Assembly (NCBI GenBank): GCA_963740355.1
Contig: CAVUDW010000002.1
Location: 2,144,001 to 2,208,000 of the forward strand
Source of the DNA: an uncultured Gemmatimonadaceae bacterium
Lineage (GTDB): Bacteria > Gemmatimonadota > Gemmatimonadetes > Gemmatimonadales > Gemmatimonadaceae
Direction: 5' to 3'
Length of the DNA: 64,000 bases
The position numbers and the translations under genes are program-made. The notes under the pieces were generated by a model that did not search any database, was not told the DNA's origin, and saw only the letters and a program-made list of their open reading frames with translations. Of the stretch, positions 10,444 through 28,538 are shown one piece after another. Positions within the stretch are counted from its first letter, which is position 1. Every line of letters begins with the position of its first letter.

Positions 10444-10451
10444 GCGCCTCC

Positions 10452-11510: not shown

Positions 11511-11940
11511 CGCGGCCCGGGCCGAGCCAACGCGCGGCCCGCGCGTCATGCTGCTCACCGCCGGTGGGCACACGGTGGCGATGGCGGCGACATCCGCGCG
11601 CGAAGTGCTGCCGCTGACGGCGGCGATTCGGTTGCCCGCTGCGCCTGAGTTCGTCTGCGGGGTAGTCAATGTGCGGGGCACCCTCGTCCCGCTCGTCGAT
11701 CTCGGTCGCCTCCTGCAGGCGGAGCCCGCCAACCCGGCTGGATGGGTGGTGACGCTCGACCTCGGAGGCCGACGGTGCGCCCTGGCGGTGGACTCGCTGC
11801 CGGTGCTGCGCGCCGCCGATGCGCCCCCCGGCGCACGCCCGACCAGTCATGCCTACCTGCAAGCCGAGGTGCGTGTGGCGGGAACCGCGCTGCCGCTGCT
11901 CGATGTGGATGCGCTGGCCGACGACATCCTGCTCCAGTAA
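11446..11940 (+). CDS. cheW: CheW coupling protein (divergent)
   Basis: LPAAPEFVCGVVNVRGTLVPLVDLGRLL, ALAVDSL, LLDVDAL. ATG 11446 overlaps rluD by 65 nt; the alternative ATG 11548 falls inside the first predicted beta strand. Confidence 0.85.
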   Translation: MISSPPPTSTQTSTPTSSPTSDAARAEPTRGPRVMLLTAGGHTVAMAATSAREVLPLTAAIRLPAAPEFVCGVVNVRGTLVPLVDLGRLLQAEPANPAGWVVTLDLGGRRCALAVDSLPVLRAADAPPGARPTSHAYLQAEVRVAGTALPLLDVDALADDILLQ

Positions 11941-11941
11941 G

Positions 11942-11961
11942 TCCACGCGACGACGCGTGGA
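11942..11961 (+). other. Intergenic stem-loop upstream of cheY
   Basis: TCCACGCG-ACGA-CGCGTGGA, a perfect 8-bp stem with no U tract. Confidence 0.5.
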
Positions 11962-11979
11962 GTCCCCAAGGATCACCAC

Positions 11980-12342
11980 ATGAGTCATCGCGTTCTGGTG
12001 TGTGACGACGCTCTCTTCATGCGTACGCTCGTCGGCGACATCCTGCAGCAGGCAGGCTTCTCCGTCTGTGGCCAGGCCGAAACCGGTGCACAGGCCGTCG
12101 CACAGTACAAGGCGCTCAAGCCTGACCTCGTGACCATGGACATCGTCATGCCCGACATGGGTGGCATCGACGCCGTCAAGGAGATCACGAGCTGGGACCC
12201 GAACGCGAAGGTCGTGATGTGCAGCGCGATGGGCCAGCAGGCGCTCGTCAACGAAGCGCTGCAGGCCGGTGCCTCCGATTTCGTCGTCAAGCCGTTCCAG
12301 CCGAACCGCGTCATCGAGGCAGTGCAGCGCGTGCTGGGCTGA
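11980..12342 (+). CDS. cheY: Stand-alone CheY response regulator (Bacillus/Thermotoga/DifD-like)
   Basis: VCDDALFMR, LVTMDIVMPDMGG (phospho-Asp), VMCSAMGQQ, FVVKPF. Confidence 0.95.
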   Translation: MSHRVLVCDDALFMRTLVGDILQQAGFSVCGQAETGAQAVAQYKALKPDLVTMDIVMPDMGGIDAVKEITSWDPNAKVVMCSAMGQQALVNEALQAGASDFVVKPFQPNRVIEAVQRVLG

Positions 12343-12381
12343 GTCGCCTGCGGCGACATCACCGCCTGAGGACCGCTCCCG

Positions 12382-14283: not shown

Positions 14284-14915
14284 TGCTGGCTATCCGCGAT
14301 GTGCGTAGTCTGAACGCCGAGCAGCTCGACGCGTTGCGTGAAGTGGCCAACATCGGCGCCGGTCACGCTGCCACTGCGCTCTCGACCATGACCGGGCAAT
14401 CGATCATGATCAAGGTGCCCACGGTCACCATCGCGCGACTGGATGAGGTGCCCGGGCACGTGGTGGCGAATCCTGAGGATGCCGTCGCCGTGGTGCTGCT
14501 GCAGATGCTGGGCGACCTCACCGGTCGCGCCTTGCTCGTCTTTCCCGAGTACACGGCCTGTCGCCTCGCGGAAATGATGTTGCAGCGGCCGCGTGGTTCA
14601 TCGCCGACGATCGCGCTCCTCGAGCAGAGTGCGCTGAAGGAGTGCGGCAACATTCTCAGCGGCGCCTACCTCAATGCGCTCGCAGATTTCATGCACCTGA
14701 TGCTGCTGCCGTCACCGCCGACGCTGGCCGTCGACATGGCCAGCGCCGTGCTCAGCTCCGCTTTCCTGCAGTTCGGCGATGGTCGTGACGTCGTGTTCTG
14801 CGTCGAGAGCGAATTCCAGATGCGCGACGATGGCGAGTCGCTGCGCGGCTACTTCCTGCTCCTGCCCGACATCGGATCGCTGCAGAAGATCCTGCACGCG
14901 GTCAACCGCGCCTGA
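14283..14915 (+). CDS. cheC: CheC family CheY-P phosphatase
   Basis: Two E-x2-N active sites: DALREVANIGAGHAATALS and SALKECGNIL. Confidence 0.93.
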   Translation: MLAIRDVRSLNAEQLDALREVANIGAGHAATALSTMTGQSIMIKVPTVTIARLDEVPGHVVANPEDAVAVVLLQMLGDLTGRALLVFPEYTACRLAEMMLQRPRGSSPTIALLEQSALKECGNILSGAYLNALADFMHLMLLPSPPTLAVDMASAVLSSAFLQFGDGRDVVFCVESEFQMRDDGESLRGYFLLLPDIGSLQKILHAVNRA

Positions 14916-14937
14916 TTTTCGCAGTCCAGAGATTCCT

Positions 14938-17415
14938 ATGTCGGTGACCCCGCAGTCGGTGCCAGTGTTGTCGATCCGTGAGACGGATCGGCTGCGCGCG
15001 ATCGCGCGCCGGGTGCCTGCGGGCAACGCCGGCGCGCAGAACAACTGCGGTGTCATGCTCGCCCGTCGCAGCCTGGCGCATGAAGCCGCGGCCTGCTTCG
15101 AGCGCGCACTCGATGTCGATGCGCGCATGACGCTGGCGGCGCAGAACCTGCAGCAGCTGGCCGCGCGCACCACCGTCGATGCCGAACGCGTCAAGCTGCT
15201 CACGGACACGCTTCGGCAGCAGCCGCACGATGTCGGCACGGCGTTGGCGCTTGGCAAGTGGCACGCGCGCCTCGGTCGACCGGCCGATGCCGCCACCGTC
15301 CTTGGGGAGCTGCTCGACCGGTCACCGGATGACCTGACCGCGCTGCGCGAGATCGCCCTCGTCGAACAGGCGCTGGGCTACCCCGACCGTGCATCGGCGT
15401 GGCTCGACCGCGCGCTTGCGCTCGCGCCGAACGACGTCTCGCTGCACGCACTCTCCGGCGAAATTCTCTATCGCCGCGGCAAGACCGAGGCCGCCAAGCG
15501 CGCGCTCGAGCGTGCACTCGAGATCGACGAGTCGGCCGCCTGGCCGCAGCACCTGCTGGCGTTCGTGCTCGGTGACATGGGGCAGCTGGAGGAGGCGCAG
15601 GCCGCAGCGCAGCGTGCGTTGCAGCTCGATCCCAACCTCGCGCGCGTCGACATGAACCTGACGCTCGACGCGCGGCCGCTGAAGCCAGTGCCGCGCGCCG
15701 CCGGCGACAGCGATGGCCGCGCTCACCTCACCCTCGGCGTGGCCTACCGCAACACCGGCTACTTCGATCAGGCCCTCGCCGAGTTCGAGACGGCACTCAA
15801 TCGCGGTGAACCGGCCTCGCAGGTGTGGACGGCGGTGGCAGAGACGCGGTTGATGCGCGACGAGTGGGCACTGGCCGCCGCGGCATATGCCGACGCGGCC
15901 CGCGCCACGCCAGGCGCCAGCGCACCGCTCGTGGCGCGCGCGGCGGTGTTGGTGCGGAATGGCGATCTCGCGGATGCGCGCCAGGCAATCGAGCAGGCGC
16001 TCGGCTGTGACGGCGACACCGGCAGCGCACAACTGGTGCTCGGCGTGCTCGAGGCGCTCGAACAGCATCCCGTCGAGGCCCTCACGGCATTCCAGCGTGT
16101 GCGCGGGACGTCACGCGTGGAACTCGCTGCACGACTGAACGCGGCCTGGGTGATGCGACAGCTCGGCAGGCATGCGGAGTGCCTCGAAGGATTCCGTCGC
16201 GTTACGGAGGCCGATCCCCAAAATGCGCGCGCGTGGATCGGTGTCGGTGTTGCATTCAGCGAGCTGCGTCGCCTGCACGAAGCCTGCAGTGCCTTCGAGC
16301 GAGCCGTGACGCTGGCGCCGGAAAGTGCTGATGCGGCGTACCACCTCGCCTTCACGCTCTCGCAGCTCGGTCGGTATCAGGATGGTGTGCGTGCGATGAA
16401 GCGTGCCATGAGCTTCGAGGATGAGTTCGCGCCATTCCGGTTCCTGCTCGTACTCGAACCGGAACTGCCGGATTTTGTGCTCGAAGTCGTCGCCAACGAC
16501 GCCGTCACCGGTGACGCCATGGCGCTCATGATGCTCAGTGGAGCGCCGCGTCCGAACGTGACATCCGAGCAGAGCGTCGTGCTCGCGGAGCAGACGCCCG
16601 CACACCCGATGCGTGCCGCACTCGCGCCGATCGCTGACGCGGACAAGAAACGCACGCCACTGGGTGCGTGGGTCGCGCTCCGTCGCGGAGGCACGCCGGT
16701 GTCGCAGACCGGTGTCAATCATCGCGTCACTCGCCGCACGCCGGCGATCCCCTTCGTTCGTGTCACCGGATCCAGCTTGCCGCCGGTGAGTGCACCACGT
16801 GACACCGCGCCGATGCGCGCCGTTGGGCCGTCACCGATCGCACCTGCCATCGTGCGGAGTGCGGAAAGTGCGCTCCGAACCGCGCTGGCCGGCGATCCCG
16901 ATCTGGCACAGGTCCGCGTCGGCCTCGCGGCGTTGCTGCGTGAGGATGGTCGTGTGCAGGACGCGGAGCAGGAGTTGATCCGCGCTTTGGAGAGTGTGCC
17001 GACGTTCCATGATGCCGCACGTGCACTCGCCGAACTGCGCGTCGACATGGGCCGGCCGAGCGACGCCATGCAGGCCTTGGTGCGTCCGCTCCGCGCCAAC
17101 CCGCGTGATGCCGACCTGCTGGTGGCACTGGCGGAAGCGTTGCTCGCGCTTGGCCGCGAAGAGCAGGCGATGTCCGCCATCTCGCGCGGCGCCGCGGTGT
17201 CGCCGGATCACGCCGGTGTACGCACCTTGCAGGGCTATCTCGCGCTGCGTGCGGGACGTGAAGCCGAGGCGATGCAGCACTGGCGCGTGGCTGCAGTCTG
17301 CGCCACTGATGATCGCTGGGGCACACGGGCGCGACTCGCGCTGGCGGAACATGACGACATCGATGTGCCGCAGACGCCGGTCACGCTGGATTCCGTGCGA
17401 CTGGTGAAGGGCTGA
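14938..17415 (+). CDS. Large cytoplasmic TPR protein with internal Pro/Thr-rich linker
   Basis: Many TPR units (e.g. AHLTLGVAYRNTGYFDQALAEFETALNRG). No signal peptide seen. Confidence 0.85.
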   Translation: MSVTPQSVPVLSIRETDRLRAIARRVPAGNAGAQNNCGVMLARRSLAHEAAACFERALDVDARMTLAAQNLQQLAARTTVDAERVKLLTDTLRQQPHDVGTALALGKWHARLGRPADAATVLGELLDRSPDDLTALREIALVEQALGYPDRASAWLDRALALAPNDVSLHALSGEILYRRGKTEAAKRALERALEIDESAAWPQHLLAFVLGDMGQLEEAQAAAQRALQLDPNLARVDMNLTLDARPLKPVPRAAGDSDGRAHLTLGVAYRNTGYFDQALAEFETALNRGEPASQVWTAVAETRLMRDEWALAAAAYADAARATPGASAPLVARAAVLVRNGDLADARQAIEQALGCDGDTGSAQLVLGVLEALEQHPVEALTAFQRVRGTSRVELAARLNAAWVMRQLGRHAECLEGFRRVTEADPQNARAWIGVGVAFSELRRLHEACSAFERAVTLAPESADAAYHLAFTLSQLGRYQDGVRAMKRAMSFEDEFAPFRFLLVLEPELPDFVLEVVANDAVTGDAMALMMLSGAPRPNVTSEQSVVLAEQTPAHPMRAALAPIADADKKRTPLGAWVALRRGGTPVSQTGVNHRVTRRTPAIPFVRVTGSSLPPVSAPRDTAPMRAVGPSPIAPAIVRSAESALRTALAGDPDLAQVRVGLAALLREDGRVQDAEQELIRALESVPTFHDAARALAELRVDMGRPSDAMQALVRPLRANPRDADLLVALAEALLALGREEQAMSAISRGAAVSPDHAGVRTLQGYLALRAGREAEAMQHWRVAAVCATDDRWGTRARLALAEHDDIDVPQTPVTLDSVRLVKG

Positions 17416-18557
17416 TGGCACTCGAGGGCGCACTCCGCGATCTGGGCCTCGCTGAAGTGATTCAGCTGCTGGCTGGCGGACGACGCACGGGCGCACTGCG
17501 CGTCTCCGGCGGTGCTGGCGCGCGCGGCGCCATCCTGCGCTTCGTCGATGGCGCGATCGCGGCAGCGCGGTGGGATGATGAGCCCGAACCGTTGCTCAGC
17601 GCCTTGTCGCAGTCAGGCCAGATCGACGCCGATGATCGCAGTGCGGCGGCGCGGTGGGCCAGCGAGCAGTCGCCGCCACGATCCTTGGTCGATGGGCTGG
17701 TCGAAACCGGGTGCATCACCACGCGCACACGCGACACGGTTGCACGACGGCTCATCGATGATCTCTGCTTCGAGCTCACCACGTTCGCCGAAGGCACCTT
17801 CTCGTTCAACGACGGCGAGAAGGCGAGTGCATTGGAACCCACCACCAATCTCAACCTCTCCGGCGAAGAACTCTTCCTCGATGCCGCTCGCCGGCGCGAT
17901 GAATGGCCGGCGATCGAATCGCGAATCGGGTCGCTCGGCGCCGTGCCGGTGGTCTGTGATTGTGATGCCGACGGTGAGCTGGCGGTGCCGGCCGACGGGT
18001 GGCGCGTGCTGTCGTGTGTGGATGGCTGTCGCACCGTGCGCCAGGTGGCCTCTGCCGCCGGCATGCGGGTGTTCGAGACCGCGCGCTGGATATCGCGCTG
18101 GACTGCACTCGGCGCACTCACCACCGACGCGCGCGCCACCACGGCCGAGGATGGCGATGCGATGGCTGGCGTGGCGCAACTCACCGCGCAGGCGCGCCGT
18201 GCCTTGGCGGAGTCGCGGTTCGAGGTGGCCCTCGCTGCGGCCCGAACCGCGATTGGTCATGCGCCGCGCAGCGCCGCCGCCCACGTCCTCGCGGGTCGCG
18301 CACTGCTCGGCCTCGGGCGCACCGAGGACTGGGCCGAGGAGGTCCGCGTCGCGGTGCAGCTGGACCCGCTCCTTCCCGAGGCGCAGGAGCAGTATGGGTA
18401 CGTGGCGGCACGGAAGGGCGAATACGCTGCCGCACTGAACGCGTGGGAGCACTATCTTGAGGCAGCACCGACTGCGCCGGACGCGGCCAGGGTGCGAATC
18501 GCTCGCGATGCTGCGGCGCAACTCCAGGAACTGATCTCCGCACATGCCGGCAGCTGA
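17415..18557 (+). CDS. DUF4388 (PatA-N/PATAN-like) domain plus C-terminal TPR
   Basis: MALEGALRDLGLAEVIQLLAGGRRTGALRV...EGTFSF...LFLDAARRRDEW, a winged-helix-like segment (VDGCRTVRQV), then TPRs. Confidence 0.85.
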   Translation: MALEGALRDLGLAEVIQLLAGGRRTGALRVSGGAGARGAILRFVDGAIAAARWDDEPEPLLSALSQSGQIDADDRSAAARWASEQSPPRSLVDGLVETGCITTRTRDTVARRLIDDLCFELTTFAEGTFSFNDGEKASALEPTTNLNLSGEELFLDAARRRDEWPAIESRIGSLGAVPVVCDCDADGELAVPADGWRVLSCVDGCRTVRQVASAAGMRVFETARWISRWTALGALTTDARATTAEDGDAMAGVAQLTAQARRALAESRFEVALAAARTAIGHAPRSAAAHVLAGRALLGLGRTEDWAEEVRVAVQLDPLLPEAQEQYGYVAARKGEYAAALNAWEHYLEAAPTAPDAARVRIARDAAAQLQELISAHAGS

Positions 18558-19287
18558 CGACATTCGCCGTTGGAGCAACGAACTCGCCACCGACCCGCAA
18601 AGCCTTGCCTTTGCGGACCTCGCCGAGGCGTTGCGCCAGCAGGGAGACCTCGAAACCGCCGAGCGATTGGCGATCCGGGGACTCGAGCGGCACCCCACCC
18701 ACGGTCCGGCGCTCAACGTGCTCGCGCGCATCGCCGAGGCGCGTGGTGATCTGAACGCGGCCGCGGCGTATTGGGAGCGCTCGCGTCAGCACAATCCGAC
18801 GCCTACCTCCGGCGCCGCCAATGGCAGCGCGCCGTCACCACGCACGAACGGGTTCGGTGAGGCCGCCGCCACCGGAGCCAGCCGCGTGACCGGTGCCGCC
18901 TATCCAACGGCCAGTTACGCGGCCGTGCCGAGTTTTTCTGCGACGCTCGCCACCCCTGTCAGCCGACCGGAAGTGGTGCGCTCGCTCGTTGCCGACGCCG
19001 ATGGCCTGCTGCTCGCCAGCCCACAGCCGAGCGATGACATGGCCGTGCTCGAGGCGATGGCGGCCGCAGTCGCCGGCGTGGGGGACGACGCCGCCAGAGC
19101 GATGAAGCACCTCAACCTCGGAACCTGGCACGCGCTGGTGCTGGAAACGGCGGGTGACTCACTCGCCCTCGCTCCGGCACCGGCAGGATCGCTGACGGTC
19201 CTCAGCGTGGCGCCGCATGTGCCGATCGGGCGCGTGCGCGCATTGCTTCGCGTGGCAACGGCGAGAGCCGCTGCCGACGGCTTCTGA
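18544..19287 (+). CDS. TPR plus Roadblock/LC7 (MglB-like) fusion protein
   Basis: N-terminal TPR pair (DPQSLAFADLAEALRQQG), a low-complexity linker, then a roadblock pattern (LVADADGLLLA...LNLGTWHALVLE...VPIGRVR). Confidence 0.75.
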   Translation: MPAADDIRRWSNELATDPQSLAFADLAEALRQQGDLETAERLAIRGLERHPTHGPALNVLARIAEARGDLNAAAAYWERSRQHNPTPTSGAANGSAPSPRTNGFGEAAATGASRVTGAAYPTASYAAVPSFSATLATPVSRPEVVRSLVADADGLLLASPQPSDDMAVLEAMAAAVAGVGDDAARAMKHLNLGTWHALVLETAGDSLALAPAPAGSLTVLSVAPHVPIGRVRALLRVATARAAADGF

Positions 19288-19298
19288 GAGACCACGCC

Positions 19299-19643
19299 AT
19301 GGCGCAATACGACCTCGTGGTCGATGAACTGATGCACACCGCCGGTGTGCACGCCGCACTGATCGTCTCGCGTGCAGACGGCATCGTGGTGGATGGAAAC
19401 GTGCACATCGGGACCGACGCCGATGCCATCGCTGCCCTCGCCGCTCGCCTCTACGGCCGCGCGGCGCAGGCGGCGACCGCAGCAGACGGGACCGAGCCGG
19501 GATTTCTGCACCTCGAAGGCGAGCGGGGCAGGGTCTGCTGTGTGCCGCAAGGCGACCTGCTGCTGGTCACGGTGGCAGAACCATGGGCGAACCTCGGCCT
19601 GCTCCGCCTCACCATGCGGCGGCTCGCGCAGAGCCTCGGCTGA
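19299..19643 (+). CDS. Roadblock/LC7 (MglB-like) protein
   Basis: 114 aa with GVHAALIVSRADGIVV...LHLEGERGRV...LLLVTVAEPWANLGLLRLTMR. Confidence 0.88.
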   Translation: MAQYDLVVDELMHTAGVHAALIVSRADGIVVDGNVHIGTDADAIAALAARLYGRAAQAATAADGTEPGFLHLEGERGRVCCVPQGDLLLVTVAEPWANLGLLRLTMRRLAQSLG

Positions 19644-19833
19644 GCTCGGTTTCTGGCTCGTAGATGAGGTCGGCAAAGGGCTCGTGGCTGAGCTCGGCGC
19701 GATGTATACGGAAGTCTGCACGACGACGCGGCTGAGGCGTGCCGCGCGGAATCGTTCGGGATCGATCTGTGGCAAGCAGCCTCAAGTGCCCAATCCGGTA
19801 GGCCAGTCGTCGTTGGCTGGACACCGCAGACTC

Positions 19834-21753
19834 ATGAAACTCGATCAACGCCTCCGCTTCGATACCTTCGTCACAGGCTCGTCCAATCGCCTCGCTGTCG
19901 CCGCTGCCAAAGCGGTGGCCGATGCGCCAGGCGTCCTGTACAACCCGCTGTTTGTGTACGGCGCGTCTGGCCTCGGCAAGACGCACCTGATGCATGCGGT
20001 GGGCCACTCCGCCAAGGACAAGCAACCGTCCCTTGGCGTCGAGTACGTCGCGCTCGACGACTACATGGAGGAATTCCATCAGGCGTTGCAGGGCGGTCGA
20101 CTGGACACCTTCAAGAAGCGATACGAGTCCGCCGGCGTCCTGCTCCTCGACGACGTGCAGTTCCTTACGGGGCGCGCAGAGGTGCAGGGTGAATTGCTGC
20201 GCCTGTTCAACGTGCTCCAGGGACGCGGCACGCAGATCGTGATGACCAGTGATCGGCCACCCGATGAGATCACCGATGTCGCCGACCGATTGCTCACGCG
20301 CCTCACCGGCGGGCTGATCGTCGATGTCGGCATCCCGGACTACGAAACGCGTGTGGCCATCCTGCAGAAACTGCAGGGAGAGCGTGCGTCGCGATTCCGC
20401 GATGGTGTGCTCGAGGAACTCGCGCGTGTCGACTTCTCGAACATCCGTGAATTGCAGGGCGGTCTCAATCGGCTGCTCGCGCATCAGGGATTGAGCGACT
20501 CGGCGATCGGCGTCTCCGATGTCCGTCGCCTCGTCGGTGCCCGCGCCACGCCGCTCGCCAACGCGGCCATCTACGGCGAGATCGAGCAACACGAACGCGA
20601 CAACGACACGATCGACTACGACACCTTCGTGCAGGAAGTCGCGACGGCCGTCGTCGAACAGGTCGAGGAGTGGCGCGTTCGACTCGCCGATGCCGCCGCA
20701 CGGTGGCGCGCCGAGGGCATCAGTGTTGCCGTCCTCGATCGTGCGCTGCAACTGCGCGAGGCGCCGGACGTGGAGGGATTGCTGGCGACGTTCGGTGCTG
20801 CCGTCGAATACCTGCGCGATCTCGAGCGCCAGGGTTCCGCCGCCGATACCACGCTGTCTGGGCATGCGATCTTCCGTGATCCGGAGCGTGTGAAGGAAGC
20901 GCATGCACTGGTGCAGCAGGCCGTCTCGTCGATCGAGCCGCCACCACGCCCAGATCCGGCCTTCATCTTCGGCACCCTGCACGAGGGACGGGCCAACCAG
21001 CTCGCACTCCGCGCAGCACGCGCCGTTGTCGAGGCGCCGGGTACGCAGTACGTCCCCCTCGTCATCACCGGCCCATCGGGCAGCGGCCGTACGCACTTGC
21101 TGCATGCCATCGGCAATGCACTGATCGACGCTGGAGTGCAGACGGTCGCCTGTGTCTCCGCGGCCACGTTCGCCGAACAGCTCATCACCGCGCTGCGCGA
21201 AGGTGCGGTCGAGAAGTGGCGCGCGCGGTACCGCAATGCTGGCGCACTGCTTCTCGATGACATCGAGGCGGTGGCGGGCAAGGAACGCACGCAAGACGAA
21301 CTCTTCCACCTGTTCAATGCGTTGCAGAGCGCAGGACGACAGGTGGTGCTGACGTCGAGTGTCCCACCGAACCAGCTCGCAACGCTCGAGGACCGACTGC
21401 GGACACGATTCGCGCAGGGCCTGATCGTGGAGCTTGGCAGCCCGGACACCGCACAGCGCGTGGCCGTCATCACCAGCGTCTTCCACGCCCATCATGCGCG
21501 CGTCGATGACGCCGTGGTGGCCCAGCTCTCGGATCGTCCCGCGCGGTCGATTGGCGACGTGATTGCCACCGCACGTCGATTGCACGCTGCCGCGACACTT
21601 GCCAACGCGCCCATTACCGCAGCCTTCGTGGCAGCGGAGTTGGACGGTGCCGTCGCACCGCGCCGCGGACTGAAACACCTCATGGGTGACCCGGAGAATT
21701 TCGTGCATCGCTGGCCCGACCTCACGGCGCGTCTCAGCGAGGACGCTGACTGA
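19834..21753 (+). CDS. Tandem DnaA/Hda-family AAA+ protein lacking the DnaA DNA-binding domain IV
   Basis: Module 1: FDTFVTGSSN, YNPLFVYGASGLGKTHL, LLLDDVQ, TSDRPP, DRLLTRL, NIRELQG. Module 2: GPSGSGRTHLL, LLLDDIE, TQDELFHLFN, DRLRTRF. Confidence 0.9.
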   Translation: MKLDQRLRFDTFVTGSSNRLAVAAAKAVADAPGVLYNPLFVYGASGLGKTHLMHAVGHSAKDKQPSLGVEYVALDDYMEEFHQALQGGRLDTFKKRYESAGVLLLDDVQFLTGRAEVQGELLRLFNVLQGRGTQIVMTSDRPPDEITDVADRLLTRLTGGLIVDVGIPDYETRVAILQKLQGERASRFRDGVLEELARVDFSNIRELQGGLNRLLAHQGLSDSAIGVSDVRRLVGARATPLANAAIYGEIEQHERDNDTIDYDTFVQEVATAVVEQVEEWRVRLADAAARWRAEGISVAVLDRALQLREAPDVEGLLATFGAAVEYLRDLERQGSAADTTLSGHAIFRDPERVKEAHALVQQAVSSIEPPPRPDPAFIFGTLHEGRANQLALRAARAVVEAPGTQYVPLVITGPSGSGRTHLLHAIGNALIDAGVQTVACVSAATFAEQLITALREGAVEKWRARYRNAGALLLDDIEAVAGKERTQDELFHLFNALQSAGRQVVLTSSVPPNQLATLEDRLRTRFAQGLIVELGSPDTAQRVAVITSVFHAHHARVDDAVVAQLSDRPARSIGDVIATARRLHAAATLANAPITAAFVAAELDGAVAPRRGLKHLMGDPENFVHRWPDLTARLSEDAD

Positions 21754-23378
21754 TGGCGATTCGTGGTAGCCTCAAGGAAGCGAGCTTTCCCGATGTGCTC
21801 CAACTGCTGGCACTGGGACAAAAATCCGGGTGTCTCAGCATCGTGGACGGCACGAAGTTCGGCTCGGTGTTCTTCCAGAACGGCAAGATCTCCTTTGCGG
21901 CGATCGTCAATCGACGCGATCGACTTGGCGACTCGCTCGTCAAGCGCGGGCACATCACCAAGGACCAGCTCGAGGATGCACTTCGTGCGCAGCTGACACA
22001 CCCGGGCCGCCGCGTGGGCGAGTTGCTGGTGGAGCTGGGCTTCGTGGCGCGCGAAGTGGTCGAGAAGGAACTGCGATCACTGGTGGAGGACGCGGTGTTC
22101 TCGCTCTTCACCTGGACGCAGGGAATCTGGACCTTCGAGCCCGACGTCCATCCCGATGGTCGTCAGCTCATGACGGCCATCAACCCTGAGTCGCTGCTGA
22201 TGGAAGGCGCGCGACGCACCGACGAGTGGGCGCTCGTCGAGCGACGGTTCCCGACCTTCGATCTCGTCTTCGAGATGGACGCGGCACGTGCAGGCCAGTC
22301 CACGCCGCTGAGCGGCGAGCTGGCCGAGGTCGCGCACCTGCTCGACGGCCGGCGCACCATTCGCGCCGTGATCGAACGCTCCGGCCTCGGTGAGTTCACG
22401 GTCGGCAAGGCGCTCTACGAGTTGGCGATGCAAGGGTTGCTGGTGCAGGTCACCAACGCCGAGACGGTGCGCAGCGACGACTCTGACATCGGCGGCACGA
22501 CGGCCGAGAAGGCGCTCAAGATGGGACTCGCGCTTGCCAAGGCCGGCATGATCGAGGACTCCGCCCGCGAATTCCGTCGTGTCGTCGAAGCCTCGCCCAA
22601 CGATCCGATTGCGCGGCACCAGCTCGGGCTGCTGGCGCTCAAGCAGGGGGAGTGGGACGATGCAGTGGGCTGGCTGGAACCGTTGGCGCAGCTGGACGAT
22701 GCGTCGTCGACGATGCTCCATCATCTGGCTCTCGCGTACGAGGGGCTGGGTCGCGAGCTTGATTCCGCACGCACGCTCGAGCGCGCCGCACGGTCGGGTG
22801 GGATGTCATCGCCGCAAGTCGAACTGTCGCGCGCGTTGCACGCCTTCCAACTCGGCGACTACGTGCGCGCCGACGCGATGCTCGCTTCCGCCCGCACCCG
22901 GTTCGACGGCGATGCGCCACCGGCCGTCTGGTTTCACTACGCGTCTCTGGTGGCCGCGGCGCGCGATGATGCCGATCAGGCGCAAGCGCTGCTCGAGGAA
23001 GGGATTCGCACACATCCCTCGGTCGGTGTGCTGCACGCCAACTACGCGGCACTGTTGCTCACACGCGGCGCGCTGACGGCGGCTGCGGCAGCTGTGGAGC
23101 GCGGGATGCTGCACGCCGCCAATCTCGCGCCGTTCCAGAAGACGGTCGGCGACCTCGCGTATCGTGTCGCGCGTTTCGACGATGCCATGGAAGCGTATCA
23201 GCGCGCCGTGCGGCTCGAACCGTCACTCGGTCCAGATGTGTACCTGAAGCTCGGTGAATTGCGGTACCAGCGCGGTGAGACACTTGAATCGCAGCGTTGC
23301 TGGCAACGCGTGCTCGAACTCGATCCAGGCAATCGTCAGGCGCAAGTCAGCCTCGATGCCATTCGACGTGCCTCATGA
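21753..23378 (+). CDS. DUF4388 (PATAN-like) domain with MshEN-type insertion plus TPR repeats
   Basis: MAIRGSLKEASFPDVLQLLALGQKSGCLSI, RLGDSLVKRGHITKDQLEDALRAQ, WTQGIWTFE, LLMEGARRTDEW, then C-terminal TPRs. Confidence 0.87.
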   Translation: MAIRGSLKEASFPDVLQLLALGQKSGCLSIVDGTKFGSVFFQNGKISFAAIVNRRDRLGDSLVKRGHITKDQLEDALRAQLTHPGRRVGELLVELGFVAREVVEKELRSLVEDAVFSLFTWTQGIWTFEPDVHPDGRQLMTAINPESLLMEGARRTDEWALVERRFPTFDLVFEMDAARAGQSTPLSGELAEVAHLLDGRRTIRAVIERSGLGEFTVGKALYELAMQGLLVQVTNAETVRSDDSDIGGTTAEKALKMGLALAKAGMIEDSAREFRRVVEASPNDPIARHQLGLLALKQGEWDDAVGWLEPLAQLDDASSTMLHHLALAYEGLGRELDSARTLERAARSGGMSSPQVELSRALHAFQLGDYVRADAMLASARTRFDGDAPPAVWFHYASLVAAARDDADQAQALLEEGIRTHPSVGVLHANYAALLLTRGALTAAAAAVERGMLHAANLAPFQKTVGDLAYRVARFDDAMEAYQRAVRLEPSLGPDVYLKLGELRYQRGETLESQRCWQRVLELDPGNRQAQVSLDAIRRAS

Positions 23379-23903
23379 CCGCGCTGGCGGCGCCGCCGTA
23401 CGCGCCTGACTCGCGCGCGACAGTCGAGGCCGACGTGCTGACTGTCGTGATGGGCAAGGCTGGTGTCGCGCATGAAGGCACGCTGTTGCGAACCGTTGGC
23501 CTGGGATCATGCGTCGCCGTGATCATCTTCGCGCCGCAGCAGCGCCTTGCTGGCCTCGCGCACTGCATGTTGCCTGATCGCGAGGACGCGGATGACCCGC
23601 CGTCGCGATTCGTCGACACCGCCGTGCCCGCGCTGATCGACGAACTGCAGGCCGCAGGGAGCATCCGCGCCGTACGCTGCGGCACTGGTCGGCGGCGCCT
23701 CGATGTTTCCCGGCGTGTCCACCGGGTTCGTGCGCGACATCGCCGGAAGCAATCTCGAACGTGCGCGTGCCGCGCTGGCCGCCGCCGCCGTGCCGGTTCG
23801 TGTCGAAGACGTCGGTGGCAGCGAGGGACGCTCGGTGCTCGTCGATCCCGCCACCCAACGCGTCCGGGTGCATACGATGCGCGGTGGCGACCGGTGGCTG
23901 TGA
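23375..23903 (+). CDS. cheD: CheD deamidase / CheC activator, interrupted by a +1 frameshift at about 23657-23659 (probable sequencing error)
   Basis: First frame: TVGLGSCVAV, GLAHCMLP, RFVDTAV. Second frame: LVGGASMF, EDVGGSEGRSV. Deleting one G of GGG restores a 175-aa protein. Confidence 0.85.
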
Positions 23904-24003
23904 TGACCGCCCTCCGTCCGATACTCTTCATCTCGATGTCTTCGGCCGCGCTCGACAGGGCGACGGTAGTGCCGCCCCGTGGCGGTAGTCCTCTGGAGCG
24001 TTC

Positions 24004-25104
24004 GTGACGATCCTGCCCCCCTCAGCGGAAGACGTGCTGAGCCCCCTGCGTGCGCAGGTGGACGATCTCGCGCGCGACCTCACCACCGACGCCGCAGCGG
24101 CGGACCACGGTGTCCTGCTCAAGCAGCGCATCTTCCTGCTCCACCGCGCCGTGGAACAGCACGCACAGCTGATCGAGCAGTTGCAGGGTGAAGTCCGCTC
24201 GCTCGTCGATGGCTGGAAGGGGCGGTTTGCGTCGGGCGGCGGCTCGTCGCTCACCCCGCTCAGTTCGGCGGCCATTTCGTCGACGCCAAGGGCGCCGGCA
24301 GCACCCGCCGCCGCGCCGACCCAGAGCCGGACCGCAGCGCCGTCGGCCACCGCTGTCGTCGCGGTGCCGGAGCCCCCTCCGACCGCTGTCGCTGCCACCG
24401 TACCCGCGCCAACGCCGGCCGTCGAACACACCAACGGATTCGCGACCGGGGCCTCGCGTACGCAGATGCCCATGGCCGTGCCAGGCCAGCCGCGCGTGAT
24501 CGACGAGTTGAACGCATCGACCTTCGTGGAGCGCGGCTGGAGTCGGATCGCGACCGGCGACTACATCGGCGCCGAGGAGGCCCTCGAAAAGGCCCTTGCC
24601 CTCAACCCGGGTGACGCGCATGCGGAGACGCTGCTCGGGTGGGCCCAGATGTCGCAAGGGAAGTTCGACTCCGCGATGGCGCTCTTTCAGCAGGTGCTCG
24701 ATCGGGTGCCCGACCACGCCCTCGCGCACATCAACGTCGGCTACGTCCTTTTTCGCCGTCGACAGTTCGATGAGGCCGAAGAGCATCTCGATCGCGCCAT
24801 CGCCCTCGATTCGGATCGAAAGGCGACGTTATACGCGCACTACTATCTGGGGCTGGTGCATTTCGAGCAGCAGCGGTACGCCGAGTCGATCGGTGCCCTG
24901 CTGCGGGCGATCGAGCTGGGTCCGAACCTGATCGAGGCCCGATTCGAGCTGGGCCGGGTACTCTGGTTTGCTGACCGCACCGACGACGCGATCGCCGCGT
25001 GGCGCAAGGGCGCGGAGGTGAACAAGTTCAACCCATGGAGTGCTCGCTGTCGCGATATGCTGGCGACCATCGCCGACGGGGGCGCGCCGACGCGCGTGGC
25101 CTGA
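24004..25104 (+). CDS. TPR protein with N-terminal coiled coil and Ala/Pro-rich linker
   Basis: GGAG before GTG 24004. C-terminal TPRs (TLYAHYYLGLVHFEQQRYAESI, PNLIEARFELG). Confidence 0.85.
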   Translation: MTILPPSAEDVLSPLRAQVDDLARDLTTDAAAADHGVLLKQRIFLLHRAVEQHAQLIEQLQGEVRSLVDGWKGRFASGGGSSLTPLSSAAISSTPRAPAAPAAAPTQSRTAAPSATAVVAVPEPPPTAVAATVPAPTPAVEHTNGFATGASRTQMPMAVPGQPRVIDELNASTFVERGWSRIATGDYIGAEEALEKALALNPGDAHAETLLGWAQMSQGKFDSAMALFQQVLDRVPDHALAHINVGYVLFRRRQFDEAEEHLDRAIALDSDRKATLYAHYYLGLVHFEQQRYAESIGALLRAIELGPNLIEARFELGRVLWFADRTDDAIAAWRKGAEVNKFNPWSARCRDMLATIADGGAPTRVA

Positions 25105-26084
25105 GCAGTTTCTGGTGGGCACTGCTGTGGTGCGCGTCGGTACTCGTGGCGTGGGCATCACCGGTCACTGCGGCACCACCCGGTGCCCTCCGTCTCGATC
25201 GCGGCCGCTTCACGGTGGTCCACTACAGTGACGATGCCACGCTGGCGCATGCTGCGCTGAACGCCGCGGCGTCACGCGACACCTTTCCCTGGTTGCCGCG
25301 GGCGTCGACACGGATCGTGATCATGGTCGCGCCCGACGCCGCCACCTTTCGCGAGTGGGCGGGACAGAGTGCGGCCAGCTGGGCGGCAGCGGTCGCGTTT
25401 CCCGACCAGCACCGCGTGGTCGTGCAAGGCGGGAAGGCACCCGCCGACGCCGGAGATCCGACCCAGGTGCTGCGACATGAACTCGCGCACGTCGCCTTGC
25501 ACGACTATCTCGGTGATCTCCCACCGCGATGGTTCGACGAGGGCTACGCCAGCTTTGCTGCGGGCGAGGAGCGCATGGATGGCTTCGTCTCGACGAACCT
25601 CGCGCTGGTGTTCAGAGGGATGCCAGCACTGGCTACGCTCGACACGATGATCGGCAGCCCGCGTCCCACGGAGGCGCGCGCCGGCTACGCGCTCGCCCTG
25701 CGCGCCGTCTCCGACCTCGCCGCCATCGACACGCAGCGCGGTCTCGGGCCGATGTTCGTCGCGTGGAAGGAGCGCGGCAGTCTCGACCTCGCCATGCGAC
25801 GCGCGTTCGCGCTCACCTCGGATGATTTCCAGCGCGGTTGGCAGCAGCGCGCGCGGTGGCAGTTCGCGTTTCTCGCGCTGGCGGCCGACTCGGCGATCAC
25901 CGGGAGCGTGCTCCTGCTTGGGCTATGGCCGATGTACCGCCGCCGACGGCAGGCCCAGCGAGATCGCCTGGAGGCGATGCGCGAGCGGGAAGCCATCACC
26001 GAGAGCGCTGCCCGGAGTGCTGCCCTCGACGTCCTGCTGCACGCGATCGGGCCTGAGCGACCCCGAGCTGGCCCCGATGCTTGA
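24999..26084 (+). CDS. Membrane-anchored zinc metallopeptidase (clan MA, gluzincin-like); true start probably near 25100
   Basis: HELAH (HExxH) followed by WFDEGYA. Hydrophobic N-terminus and a C-terminal TM followed by RRRR. Confidence 0.75.
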   Translation: MAQGRGGEQVQPMECSLSRYAGDHRRRGRADARGLSSFWWALLWCASVLVAWASPVTAAPPGALRLDRGRFTVVHYSDDATLAHAALNAAASRDTFPWLPRASTRIVIMVAPDAATFREWAGQSAASWAAAVAFPDQHRVVVQGGKAPADAGDPTQVLRHELAHVALHDYLGDLPPRWFDEGYASFAAGEERMDGFVSTNLALVFRGMPALATLDTMIGSPRPTEARAGYALALRAVSDLAAIDTQRGLGPMFVAWKERGSLDLAMRRAFALTSDDFQRGWQQRARWQFAFLALAADSAITGSVLLLGLWPMYRRRRQAQRDRLEAMREREAITESAARSAALDVLLHAIGPERPRAGPDA

Positions 26085-26109
26085 CCCGCTTCGATAGGTC
26101 GCGTACCGT
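26081..26109 (+). promoter_or_regulatory. Putative sigma70 promoter, leaderless, for the small membrane protein
   Basis: TTGACC (26081-26086), 17 nt spacer, TACCGT (26104-26109). ATG is 7 nt downstream. Confidence 0.5.
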
Positions 26110-26116
26110 GAACCCT

Positions 26117-26287
26117 ATGGCTCTCTCAGAAACAGAAACTCCGCGCCGCCCTTTGCTCTGGTGGGGATTGGCCGCTGCCGCGCTCGCGCTCGGTTACGCT
26201 GACCTCGCGCGCGGCGGGACAACGTTTGCCCCCGTGCTGCTCGTAATCGGATATTGCGTGCTGGTCCCGATCGCGATCCTGAAGTAG
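26117..26287 (+). CDS. Small two-TM membrane protein (DUF3098-like)
   Basis: 56 aa, LALGYADLARGGTTFAPVLLVIGYCVLVPIAIL, recalled as resembling the DUF3098 pattern. Confidence 0.65.
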   Translation: MALSETETPRRPLLWWGLAAAALALGYADLARGGTTFAPVLLVIGYCVLVPIAILK

Positions 26288-26481
26288 TTCCGCCTGTCCA
26301 TGAGCCCGCCGACGTCGGCGGGCGAACGTTACGATCCGGTTAAGTGCATGTGCGGCGGTCACTTCGTCGTGCTTTGGTGCTTGCCCTCGTTACTCATGGA
26401 CGGCACTTTTCCGCCCGGGGGGCGCTACTACCTGCATGCAGGGCTTGGTGTAGTCGAATGCAGAGAGGTAGGCAGTCCGTC

Positions 26482-26555
26482 GGGCGAATAGCTCAGCTGG
26501 TTAGAGCACCTGTCTTACACACAGGGGGTCGGGGGTTCGAATCCCTCTTCGCCCA
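26482..26555 (+). tRNA. tRNA-Val (anticodon TAC); CCA not encoded
   Basis: Acceptor stem GGGCGAA/TTCGCCC, D arm GCTCAGCTGGTTAGAGC, anticodon arm CCTGT-CTTACAC-ACAGG, T loop GGTTCGAATCC. Confidence 0.97.
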
Positions 26556-26622
26556 CCTGCAGATCTCGGGGCTGCGGCACGACGCGGCAGCTCAATTGGC
26601 ATCACCATCGTGGAGGTCGTAA

Positions 26623-28350
26623 GTGAGCGTTCGGATTCCTCAGATCGCGTGGCTCGGTCTCGTCGCCGGTAGCATGTCCTGTGCGCTTGAAGCACAGGTG
26701 GCCCGTGCGCCAGACCCCAATACGCCGCGCATGATGGTGCTGACGTTCCGCACTGCCACGCCGGGCAACTCCGGCGTTCAGGCAGCGGACGCACTGCGCT
26801 CGCGTATGGGCTCTGAAGTCCCGTACAAGCAACTCTGGCAGATCCCGAACACGGAAATCAACGCCGTGCTCGAGGCCTCCGGCTACAAGAAGGACGAACC
26901 ACTCTCGTCCAACGATGCCCGCGAACTCGGCCGTCAGCTCCGTGCGGATGAGTTCGTTCAGGGCTTTGTCCGCCGTGACGGCGAAGCCTGGCGCATCGAA
27001 GCCACGCTGCACCTCGTTCGCGACCCGTCGCTGGCACAGCCGCTGACACTCCAGTCTGCCGCCAAGGCTGGTGACGCTGCCAAGCTCATCGCGGCCGAGC
27101 TCGTCGAGGCCCGCAAGCAGCTGGTGCCGGAACGCGCCTGCGTGAATGCCGCCCGGGACAAGAACTGGGACAAGGCCATGGCGTCGGCGCGCGAAGGGAT
27201 TGCCCTCTTCCCGAAGGCCGTCATCGCCCGTACCTGCCTGCTCAACGCGATGGTCGAGACCAAGGCCACCGACGAAGCACAGCTCGCCATGGCAGAAGAA
27301 ATTCTCGCCATCGATTCGCGCAGCCGCCGTGCATTGTCGATTGCCGGTGACATCTATCGTCGCCGCAACCTCGCCAACCCGAAGGACACCACGAACGCGA
27401 ACAAGATGATTCAGGCCTACACCGGCCTGATCGCTGCCGACCCGACGAACACCCGCCTCGTCGACGACGTCACGAAGGCCATTGCCGGCGCCGGTAACCC
27501 GGGCGTGGCACTGCCGATCATCCGCAAGGCCGTTGAAGAGAATCCGGGCGATGCATCGCTGATGCGCACGCAGTTCCTCGTCGAGCTCGCTGCTCGCGAT
27601 ACCAAGAATGCCATCCGCACGGGCACCGAACTGGCCGCGCTCGACACGGCCATGGCCGACACGAATTACTTCTTCCGCATGGCTGCGGCGTACCAGCAGG
27701 ACAGCCAGCCGGCCAAGGCCGCCGAAGTGATCGCGCAGGGTGTTGCCAAGTTCCCGGAGAGCGCCAGTCTCCTCGTCGTCTCGGCCCAGGCGCAGCGCGC
27801 CGCTGGTCAGACGCAGCAGGCTGTCGAGACCCTGAAGAAGGCACTCACGCTCGATGCCAACGTCGAGCGCGGACAGCTGCAGCTCGCACAGCTGTACAAC
27901 GACCTCAAGCAGCCGGACAGTGCTTACGCCGCGCTGGTTCGTGCCGACAAGGGCGCTGACAGCGTACTCGTGGGTGACGTCGCACTCGACCTTGGCAACA
28001 AGGCGCAGCGTGAAGTCGCAGCGAAGCCCGACGCGACCGACGTCGACTGGACCAACGTCGTCAACTTCCTCACGCTGGCCGACAACAACGCCACCAGCCC
28101 CGAGCGCAAGCAGCAGGCGAAGTTCCTCCTCGGCACCGTGGCGCTGCGTCGTGGTCAGGCGTTGCTCAAGGCGGGCGTCGATGGCAAGAACTGCGCGATG
28201 GTCAAGTCCGCAGGCGAACAGCTGGCGATCGCCCAGGTCAACGTGCCTGCCGGTGGACGTTTCGCTCCGCAGGCCGCTGGCCAGCTGATGCAGGCGCTCG
28301 GCCAGTTGCTGCCGGCGTCGGCCCAGGCCGAAAAGGCGATCTGCAAGTAA
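26623..28350 (+). CDS. Secreted/periplasmic TPR protein with TolB-N/CsgG-like N-terminal region
   Basis: GGAGG before GTG, signal peptide (ALEA/Q), alpha/beta N-terminus (ARELGRQLRADEFVQG), then TPRs. Confidence 0.75.
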   Translation: MSVRIPQIAWLGLVAGSMSCALEAQVARAPDPNTPRMMVLTFRTATPGNSGVQAADALRSRMGSEVPYKQLWQIPNTEINAVLEASGYKKDEPLSSNDARELGRQLRADEFVQGFVRRDGEAWRIEATLHLVRDPSLAQPLTLQSAAKAGDAAKLIAAELVEARKQLVPERACVNAARDKNWDKAMASAREGIALFPKAVIARTCLLNAMVETKATDEAQLAMAEEILAIDSRSRRALSIAGDIYRRRNLANPKDTTNANKMIQAYTGLIAADPTNTRLVDDVTKAIAGAGNPGVALPIIRKAVEENPGDASLMRTQFLVELAARDTKNAIRTGTELAALDTAMADTNYFFRMAAAYQQDSQPAKAAEVIAQGVAKFPESASLLVVSAQAQRAAGQTQQAVETLKKALTLDANVERGQLQLAQLYNDLKQPDSAYAALVRADKGADSVLVGDVALDLGNKAQREVAAKPDATDVDWTNVVNFLTLADNNATSPERKQQAKFLLGTVALRRGQALLKAGVDGKNCAMVKSAGEQLAIAQVNVPAGGRFAPQAAGQLMQALGQLLPASAQAEKAICK

Positions 28351-28414
28351 GCCGTGCCGGAATGATCGCTCGAGCGTGGGCGGCGTTGTCTCGCCTCGCT
28401 TGAAGTCGGTGTCG

Positions 28415-28447
28415 AAGCGCCCACTGTCTCCGGACAGTGGGCGCTTT
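28415..28447 (+). terminator. Probable intrinsic terminator
   Basis: AAGCGCCCACTGTC-TCCG-GACAGTGGGCGCTT, a perfect 14-bp stem with a short T tract. Confidence 0.7.
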
Positions 28448-28538
28448 GCCTTGCCCCATCGTCGTCGCGCGTGGCGTTCACGCCAACGCCCGGTGTTTCG
28501 CTAGATTGCGCTCGCTGGCCCACCCACAAACCGACGGA

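Follow-up and report, generated by a model that had tools for sequence, protein, structure and literature searches.

In a 64,000-nucleotide stretch of DNA from an uncultured Gemmatimonadaceae bacterium (GenBank assembly GCA_963740355.1, contig CAVUDW010000002.1, positions 2,144,001 to 2,208,000 of the forward strand; hereafter the window), we describe a gene whose product carries two DnaA-type AAA+ modules in a single chain of 639 amino acids (aa). The protein, for which we use our own label DnaA2x, is, by sequence comparison, under selection and genetically welded to the gene that follows it, which encodes a PATAN-PATAN-TPR protein. Our favored explanation, to which we assign a probability of about one half, is that DnaA2x is a Gemmatimonadota-specific derivative of the DnaA core that would work as a nucleotide-driven assembly switch tethered to a PATAN-TPR scaffold.

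The preliminary description of a protein of this length with two DnaA domain III modules, encoded on the plus strand, was confirmed by translation of the open reading frame (ORF), by Pfam and by an AlphaFold2 model (coordinates in Table 1). The Bac_DnaA family (PF00308) matches DnaA2x in two stretches (E 1.2e-100) and, as had been anticipated for a hidden Markov model scan, Bac_DnaA_C (PF08299) is not among the 16 Pfam families listed for the protein; the NCBIfam DnaA model TIGR00362 scores 470 bits, likewise in two stretches. The AlphaFold2 model (30-row alignment; mean predicted local distance difference test score, pLDDT, of 84; predicted template modelling score, pTM, of 0.48) shows residues 3-232 and 385-603 as two AAA+ modules, each made up of base and lid. 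The N-terminal domains I and II are not present, residue 2 of DnaA2x aligning at position 103 of the 437-position TIGR00362 model, and only 36 residues remain after module 2, so that the reported lack of domains I, II and IV is borne out by both the alignment and the missing PF08299 match. What had been termed a ~150-aa helical linker is helical in its central part, a bundle at residues 259-366, and also comprises a segment predicted to be disordered (residues 235-258) and a Pro-rich connector. Folded alone, the linker gives a three-helix bundle (pLDDT 82). It belongs to no Pfam or NCBIfam family and its fold found no assignment among 48161 chains, the best match (EzrA, Z 5.9) lying below the meaningful level for helical bundles, and its ratio of nonsynonymous to synonymous substitution rates (dN/dS) of 0.047 indicates that it matters. 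A degenerate domain IV or domain I was considered as its origin and rejected, BLASTP against the genome's own DnaA returning chance matches only (E 0.8 or worse). The C-terminal tail (residues 614-639), which the preliminary description did not mention, is conserved.

DnaA2x is evidently not the replication initiator, since a separate dnaA exists and since domains I, II and IV are absent. The separate gene encodes 466 aa including domain IV and lies at ~18.3-19.7 kb of G000:C2; the earlier worry that the tandem gene might be the genome's only dnaA, or might carry a domain IV itself, thus holds in neither form. The genome (5.45 Mb, 5 contigs) contains exactly three PF00308 matches, i.e., the two modules of DnaA2x and the separate dnaA, and its only PF08299 match sits in the latter. 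Both modules are nevertheless recognizable DnaA cores: scanned alone, module 1 reaches 264 bits with the DnaA model and 83 bits with the Hda model, and module 2 reaches 208 and 109 bits, respectively. Neither module alone attains the TIGR00362 cut-off of 343.9 bits, the 470 bits being the score of both together. By BLASTP, module 1 is 43% and module 2 35% identical to the genome's own DnaA, and the two modules share 39% identity with each other. The first among the single-domain Foldseek matches was B. subtilis DnaA domain III (8BV3), which superposes on module 1 with a template modelling score (TM) of 0.93 and a root-mean-square deviation (rmsd) of 1.7 Å at 44% identity.

The catalytic residues are distributed unevenly between the modules. 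All motifs and coordinates quoted in the preliminary description agree with the translation: the Walker A sequence of module 1, GASGLGKT, begins at residue 43 (19960-19983), that of module 2, GPSGSGRT, occupies 21070-21093 with its Arg codon CGT at 21088-21090 (R419), and SDRPP, DRLLTR, NIRELQG, SSVPP, DRLRTRF and SIGDV are all found. Module 1 thus possesses Walker A K49, Walker B D106/D107, sensor I D140, Box VII R152, the arginine finger R156 and sensor II R205, whereas module 2 has R419 in Walker A, Walker B D475/D476, Box VII R521 and the finger R525, with sensor I (S509) and sensor II (G574) lost. In E. coli DnaA numbering, the fingers R156 and R525 correspond to R285, and R152 and R521 to Box VII R281. 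The roles of the DnaA-DnaA contact residues and of those binding the single-stranded DNA unwinding element (H motif V211, B motif R245, AID-1 R227, and AID-2) are taken from the review PMC5742627. At the single-stranded DNA (ssDNA)-binding positions module 1 of the window protein is changed (V211 to H82, R245 to E116, R227 to E98), and module 2 keeps the DnaA-type residues I451, K483, R485 and R467 together with the L290 equivalent.

This division recurs across the family. In an alignment of 75 sequences (the window and 74 loci, whose rows are not independent, include fragments and split forms, and represent at least one genome twice, as L008 and L065), the Walker A Lys, Walker B, sensor I, both Box VII arginines and sensor II of module 1 are kept in 69-71 of 75. 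The arginines of module 2, including the finger, are retained just as often (70-71/75), its sensor I pair in only 28-31/75, and its sensor II Arg in 22/75, the remainder being 26 gaps, 18 Gly, 5 Ala, 3 Asp and 1 Thr. The equivalents of AID-2 L290, R281 and R285 occur in 26/26 module 2 sequences each, that of V211 as Ile or Val in 25/26, R245 in 24/26, K243 as Lys or Arg in 20/26, and R227 in 25/26. Module 1 has His at the V211 position in 18/28 and Glu at the R245 position in 24/28, and never Arg at the R227 position. Module 1 therefore looks like a catalytically complete ATPase and module 2 like a partner module, whose own hydrolysis residues appear dispensable and whose finger and DnaA-type contact surface are kept; in other words, the hydrolysis machinery lies in module 1, and the finger, together with the surface through which DnaA makes oligomer contacts and binds single strands, in module 2. 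The earlier proposal of an ATPase plus activator is matched by this residue pattern, module 1 being complete and module 2 of the window protein having kept its finger and lost the Walker A Lys and the sensors. The family architecture is labile: module 2 is missing in three loci (L009, L022, L023), its P-loop is lost in L020, and in three genomes of two families (L012, L017, L021) DnaA2x is split into two adjacent genes, one for module 1 and one for the linker and module 2. One locus is reversed (L005, genome G099), with a canonical module 2 and a module 1 devoid of Box VII arginines and the sensor II Arg.

For the Lys-to-Arg change in the Walker A motif of module 2, the preliminary description had named lineage drift as the verdict should most orthologues have GKT there. 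We listed 120 homologues and aligned the 115 of 580-720 aa, five being left out for length. Among these, module 2 combines Lys with the sensor II Arg in 65/115 and Arg with a sensor II Gly in 50/115, with no mixed state; the Arg state is present in all 44 homologues at ≥80% identity and all six at 67-70%, and in 0/65 at ≤53%. In the locus alignment there are likewise 51 K and 18 R, so that most orthologues keep GKT and the Walker A Arg is the state of one clade rather than a family trait. It is nevertheless not mere drift, because it is fixed in 50/50 members of this clade, always with the sensor II Arg-to-Gly change, and because module 2 has a dN/dS of 0.09. These ratios derive from 14 genes of the Arg clade (NG86 method) at about one synonymous substitution per site (dS ~1), i.e., near saturation, with values of 0.031 (module 1), 0.047 (bundle), 0.092 (module 2), 0.053 (tail) and 0.55 (disordered segment). 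Two Lys-type clades differ in this respect, the constraint on module 2 being as strong there as that on module 1 (0.033 vs 0.045; 0.049 vs 0.075). Module 2 of the Arg clade thus seems somewhat relaxed but clearly functional.

An Arg in the P-loop recalls Hda. In E. coli, Hda has a Gly55-Arg56-Ser57 P-loop, is bound to ADP and possesses the Arg153 finger, as well as Arg202 at sensor II and, at the N terminus, the clamp motif QLSLF (PMC5397184); the GAGRS P-loop is also seen in the translated K-12 hda, and what the preliminary description said of this protein (an Arg-containing Walker A, ADP binding and an Arg finger) is correct. For module 2 itself the label "Hda-like" finds support in the P-loop Arg and otherwise none: the Hda score is 109 bits against a cut-off of 194.8, and the clamp motif and sensor II Arg are missing. 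Even the whole of DnaA2x scores 186 bits with the Hda model TIGR03420, under the same cut-off of 194.8. A regular-expression search found no QL[SD]LF-type clamp-binding motif in DnaA2x, in agreement with what had been reported, the only loose match being QDELF at residue 487, inside module 2. In a quick IQ-TREE analysis of 68 domain III sequences (28 of module 1, 26 of module 2, six Gemmatimonadota DnaA, six Patescibacteria DnaA, E. coli DnaA and E. coli Hda), each of the four groups formed one supported side of a branch (Shimodaira-Hasegawa-like approximate likelihood ratio test 98, 100, 98 and 100) with an unresolved backbone. E. coli Hda sat on a branch of length 2.67, and the approximately unbiased test did not reject its grouping with either module (module 2, p 0.59; module 1, p 0.56); as only a single Hda sequence was included, the tree carries no weight on a descent of the modules from Hda.

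The tandem form seems confined to Gemmatimonadota. A word-indexed search recovered full-length tandem homologues down to 47% identity, and all of the named ones belong to this phylum, where they are annotated as "DnaA/Hda family protein", "ATP-binding protein" or "chromosomal replication initiator". In the ESM Atlas only Gemmatimonadota clusters of the DnaA2x family and short DnaA-type clusters were found, and a whole-protein pattern scan of 185,579 species genomes returned the tandem form only in Gemmatimonadota records; matches in Patescibacteria were dismissed as ordinary single-module DnaA with frames of ~450 aa. The linker is equally restricted: against 1.84 billion representative proteins it gave only 183 matches at E 0.001 or better, nearly all at residues ~250-380 of 600-670-aa proteins or in fragments. 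A presumed linker-PATAN fusion (P0212) proved to be a frameshift or gene-calling artefact, BLASTP revealing an Arg/Pro-rich out-of-frame stretch between its matches. Within the phylum the linker (151 aa) matched 195 of 301 sampled genomes with intact frames, distributed by family as f1 54/69, f2 121/125, f3 3/3, f4 4/6, f5 1/1, f8 4/4 and f7 7/47, and was detected in 0/23 f6 and 0/13 f10 genomes. These tallies include four unpublished genomes (G057, G097, G157, G182), and the linker search misses divergent copies, e.g., the 35%-identical tandem gene of G159. In genera g5, g10, g18 and g22 only dnaA was found. DnaA2x of the window shows every trait by which we delimit the twin DnaA-type family, i.e., module 1, linker, module 2, an E-x-x-V-x-x-W-P tail and a PATAN-PATAN-TPR gene downstream. 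A literature search that covered few of the subscription journals brought up no published work on a DnaA-type protein in tandem form or as a paralogue, whether in Gemmatimonadota or encoded next to MglA.

DnaA2x is closely associated with the downstream gene. The stop codon of DnaA2x and the ATG of the PATAN-PATAN-TPR gene overlap by one base (TGATG), and the latter directly follows DnaA2x in 19/19 loci of our synteny set, which spans eight families of the phylum. Its distribution nearly matches that of DnaA2x, full-length orthologues being present in f1 65/69, f2 123/125, f3 3/3, f4 5/6, f5 1/1, f7 11/47 and f8 4/4, with none in f6 or f9-f12. Four f1 genomes (G036, G072, G114, G168) have only dnaA and no DnaA2x, and their PATAN-PATAN-TPR gene is truncated at the N or C terminus.

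A physical counterpart of this association is suggested by the tail of DnaA2x. Its residues E621, W627, P628, D629, R633 and E636 are nearly invariant (E621, W627 and R633 strictly so in the 30-row alignment) and it persists in family forms without module 2; on account of this conservation and retention we had proposed it as a TPR ligand before the complex was modelled. For the complex prediction, the 541-aa neighbor (19-row alignment) was combined with residues 255-639 of DnaA2x (30-row alignment). The interface score ipSAE (interaction prediction score from aligned errors) came to 0.74, 0.73 and 0.75, as opposed to 0.00 for all three controls, the runs sharing at least 68% of contacts with a partner pLDDT of at least 76; this mark is reached by 116/157 solved complexes and 2/215 mismatched pairs. 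All confident contacts join tail residues 614-637 to the TPR region 293-496, where L399, N430, K463, D467 and D495 are conserved and where the interface is slightly more conserved than the remaining TPR region (0.638 vs 0.574), a value that 372 of 10000 random subsets reach. In the predicted complex, tail residue 622 contacts TPR residues 460, 463 and 464, with which it co-varies: nearly all loci with K622 keep N464 and N429, and the three lineages without K622 have also changed both, the Arg clade pairing N622 with T464, A429 and P460, L009 pairing G622 with the same three residues, and L020 pairing N622 with A464 and V429. The tail thus probably docks in the TPR groove of the downstream protein, with the support of the model.

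The two genes form part of a conserved cluster (Table 1). In the window the order is divIVA, phosphorylase, ileS, DksA-like, lspA, rluD, cheW, cheY, cheA, cheC/X, TPR, PATAN-TPR, TPR-Roadblock, Roadblock and DnaA2x, followed by PATAN-PATAN-TPR, a 236-aa ORF, TPR, Peptidase_MA-like, TPR, rsmH and ftsI. The cluster therefore sits between divIVA/ileS/DksA-like/lspA/rluD (4590-11510) and rsmH/ftsI (28437-31811), as it does in further genomes of this phylum. Seventeen of the 19 loci have the Che and Roadblock part; the other two, both from f7 (L020, L021), are minimal and comprise rluD, DnaA2x, PATAN-TPR and the peptidase-like gene only. Control by Che, as had been suggested for DnaA2x, is consequently no requirement in the family. 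The 19 loci showed no transposase and the cluster no pilus genes, and a promoter and terminator scan of 11000-28600 gave 0 promoter-like sites and 4 terminator-like sites vs 6.4 expected.

Table 1. Features of the DnaA2x gene and its surroundings in the window
Feature	Position	Strand	Evidence
DnaA2x gene, twin DnaA-type AAA+ protein, 639 aa	19834..21753	+	stop-free ORF and translation; two PF00308 matches; start Met common to orthologues
Module 1, residues 3-232, complete DnaA domain III	19840..20529	+	TIGR00362 264 bits scanned alone
Linker segment, residues 235-258, variable, predicted disordered	20536..20607	+	pLDDT <50 for 237-262; dN/dS 0.55
Linker three-helix bundle, residues 259-366, family-specific, then Pro-rich connector	20608..20931	+	confident AlphaFold2 models
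Module 2, residues 385-603, DnaA domain III	20986..21642	+	TIGR00362 208 bits, Hda model 109 bits
Conserved C-terminal tail, residues 614-639, predicted TPR-docking peptide	21673..21750	+	conservation, complex prediction, covariation
PATAN-PATAN-TPR gene, 541 aa	21753..23378	+	Pfam DUF4388 in two stretches and TPR families
TPR groove, residues 293-496, predicted to hold the DnaA2x tail	22629..23240	+	complex-prediction interface list
cheW, cheY, cheA and cheC/CheX genes, cluster head	11269..14915	+	Pfam; syntenic in 17/19 loci
TPR protein (878 aa as listed), PATAN-TPR (380 aa), TPR-Roadblock (247 aa), Roadblock (114 aa)	14779..19643	+	Pfam, synteny
190-bp gap between the Roadblock gene and DnaA2x	19644..19833	.	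elsewhere a 154-aa ORF and MglA-like GTPase paralogue here
236-aa ORF, TPR (366 aa), Peptidase_MA-like (361 aa), TPR (575 aa); then rsmH, ftsI	23297..28350	+	Pfam, synteny

Other genera carry additional genes. Between Roadblock and DnaA2x they have a 154-aa ORF of no known family and an Arf/MglA-like GTPase (L008:8036-9110; Pfam Arf), and after the PATAN-TPR gene a cheB and two cheW that do not occur in the window's genus. The cluster GTPase is a paralogue specific to this cluster, and four other genomes carry both it and a standalone MglA. Neither the window nor the same-genus genome G287 yielded the cluster GTPase, both genomes having only the standalone copy. A candidate for a relocated cluster gene, the MglA-like C2:1410396-1411082, was set aside, as it is the ordinary standalone MglA that others have besides the cluster copy. 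This standalone MglA is intact (228 aa; G000:C2:1409886-1411082, L025:7886-9082), the preceding 164-aa ORF may be MglB, and it is the only MglA-type GTPase of the genome found with the MglA query. None of the 18 Arg-clade loci has the GTPase, the 154-aa ORF, cheB or the additional cheW, and the GTPase is present in 34 of 37 Lys-type tandem loci, the gene in the other three (L060, L062, L093) lying at a contig start with no upstream flank. The Arg state and the loss of the cluster genes probably represent one evolutionary episode, and are therefore to be read as a co-occurrence, not as a correlation.

Several smaller observations concern the remaining genes. The Peptidase_MA-like gene (24999-26084; a weak PF13485 match, below cut-off) accompanies DnaA2x and PATAN-TPR even in the minimal loci L020 and L021. 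The 878-aa TPR ORF (14779-17415) overlaps cheC/X (14283-14915) by 137 bases at its listed start, and its true start is probably further downstream. The 236-aa ORF (23297-24007) has a weak CheD-like match (E 0.004, below cut-off), and its core (residues ~64-122) is short, conserved and recurs after the PATAN-TPR gene in most loci.

We postulate the following course of events. The tail of DnaA2x would plug into the groove of the PATAN-PATAN-TPR protein, as predicted, and thereby tether the ATPase to the scaffold. The modules would pack head to tail, as they do in DnaA oligomers, and the finger of module 2 would complete a neighboring ATP site, be it that of module 1, in its own chain or an adjoining one, or possibly that of DnaA. 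ATP binding and hydrolysis in module 1 would then set the assembly and disassembly of the scaffold-bound complex, which could serve as the output or timing device of a Che/Roadblock/MglA-type polarity cluster located beside division genes. In the window's genus the cluster is trimmed, its GTPase, CheB and the extra CheW being absent, and module 2 may have turned into a non-hydrolysing activator.

Several points weigh against this explanation. The ATP site served by the module 2 finger is something we infer, because the model places the two modules relative to each other with low confidence (pTM 0.48), and the complex prediction covered residues 255-639 of DnaA2x, without module 1. The covariation rests on three events and has an exception, L023, in which K622 is kept and the TPR positions are changed, and the conservation of the TPR interface exceeds that of the rest only slightly. 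Many solved structures are complexes of a TPR domain with a peptide, so that part of the score may stem from general likeness, and the calibration counts hold only roughly as the alignments were custom-built. The link to polarity signalling is drawn solely from gene neighborhood, and the core trio also occurs without Che, Roadblock and GTPase genes (L020, L021). Lastly, the DnaA contact and ssDNA residues of module 2, to go by the alignments, fit a DnaA or DNA target equally well.

Such a target is the essence of the strongest competing explanation, in which DnaA2x regulates the true DnaA or origin DNA, module 2 docking on ATP-DnaA oligomers or on unwound DNA. It could do so by triggering DnaA-ATP hydrolysis via its finger in the manner of Hda, by capping the filament or by tethering the origin to the PATAN-TPR scaffold, and any of these modes would couple initiation to polarity or division signals. 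The retention of the V211, K243, R245, R227, L290, R281 and R285 equivalents in 20-26 of 26 module 2 sequences agrees with it, as do the Hda-type GxGR[ST] P-loop of the window's clade, a genome that has no separate Hda among its three PF00308 matches, and the position of the cluster between divIVA-ileS-lspA-rluD and the dcw genes. However, module 1 and module 2 would need the same residues to contact each other, the ssDNA-binding residues of module 1 are reversed or lost, no clamp-binding motif is present and the Hda model score is under its cut-off. Moreover, the protein was not found in part of the phylum (f6 0/23, f10 0/13; only dnaA in g5, g10, g18 and g22), and this patchy distribution implies that DnaA2x is not a general part of replication control. 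On balance we consider regulation of DnaA or the origin unlikely, albeit deserving of attention. We are also doubtful of a more specific form, in which module 2 would be a still-functional DnaA-type oligomerisation and ssDNA unit that joins DnaA filaments or origin DNA, with the tail held on a Che/MglA-controlled PATAN-TPR scaffold.

Two further explanations carry very little weight. Weak IstB_IS21, DnaI and DnaC matches (PF01695 71 bits; all far below the NCBIfam cut-offs, i.e., IS21_help_AAA 102 vs 200, DnaI 54 vs 228 and DnaC 29 vs 357 bits) could hint at a helicase loader or transposition helper of the DnaC, DnaI or IstB kind acting on a helicase or mobile element, but the DnaA model gives both modules far higher scores than the IstB and DnaC models do, module 1 superposes closely on B. 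subtilis DnaA domain III (see above), and the chromosomal synteny is stable across the phylum with no transposase in the loci compared, which makes this role highly improbable. We find it even harder to credit that DnaA2x is a decaying dnaA duplicate without a function of its own, in which the changes of module 2 are neutral drift. The variability of module 2, which is split, missing or without its P-loop in the seven loci named above and evolves ~3x faster than module 1 in the Arg clade, would be expected of decay; yet the frames are intact in 195 genomes, dN/dS is 0.03-0.09 over the 14 genes at dS ~1, the arginine finger (70-71/75) and tail are conserved, and the Arg state is fixed in 50/50 clade members.

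Placed beside known systems, DnaA2x most resembles DnaA (comparison structures 8BV3, 8BTG, 2Z4R, 2HCB and 3R8F), both modules being full DnaA-type AAA+ units (base and lid) that keep the Box VII, finger and AID-2 equivalents. It differs from DnaA in having no domains I, II and IV, in its two modules per chain, helical bundle and predicted TPR-docking tail, in its location in a Che/Roadblock/PATAN/TPR cluster, and in that the hydrolysis and ssDNA residues are divided between modules. With Hda and HdaA it shares the DnaA-related AAA+ core without domain IV and, in the window's clade, a Gly-Arg-Ser/Thr P-loop and an exposed finger in module 2; unlike Hda, module 2 has neither clamp motif nor sensor II Arg, it is fused to a complete ATPase module, and most DnaA2x orthologues have a normal Lys P-loop. 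Two AAA+ modules per chain, often one active and one degenerate, are also found in type II, two-ring proteins such as p97/Cdc48, NSF and ClpB, but these belong to another AAA+ clade and form closed hexamers, and Foldseek aligns them loosely (TM 0.23-0.34). The initiator clade, to which the modules of DnaA2x belong, forms open spirals. As for PATAN regulators (PatA, PixE) and MglA/MglB, the likeness lies in the two PATAN domains of the partner, the Roadblock proteins of the cluster and the MglA paralogue of other genera; here, by contrast, no receiver is fused to PATAN and the ATPase is predicted to be contacted via TPR, not PATAN. In Synechocystis, the PATAN domain serves as output and binds PilB1, an ATPase of the pilus motor (bioRxiv 10.1101/2021.06.11.447907), and PatA is linked to the divisome by the title of PMC7380572.

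The known DnaA-type AAA+ modules either initiate replication or act as direct regulators and loaders of the initiators, e.g., Hda and DnaC. Gemmatimonadota are abundant in soil and sediment, and to our knowledge their cell biology is almost unstudied; genetic tools for them are lacking (PMC11271474). DnaA2x is a conserved and selected case in which a DnaA core has been duplicated in tandem, stripped of its DNA-recognition and helicase-recruiting domains and placed on a signalling scaffold by a predicted tether. It constitutes a natural dissection of DnaA domain III, with the hydrolysis residues in one module and the finger, AID and ssDNA motifs in the other, and the tail in the TPR groove offers a concrete, testable protein-protein interface. 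If the target of DnaA2x is neither DnaA nor DNA, the initiator-clade AAA+ assembly would be reusable as a signalling switch. If, on the other hand, the target is DnaA or DNA, there would be a new link between replication and polarity or division: should the origin-coupling explanation be true, these bacteria would possess a device by which initiation, or the position of the origin, is coupled both physically and enzymatically to polarity or division signalling, i.e., a functional Hda analogue built on a different partner logic.

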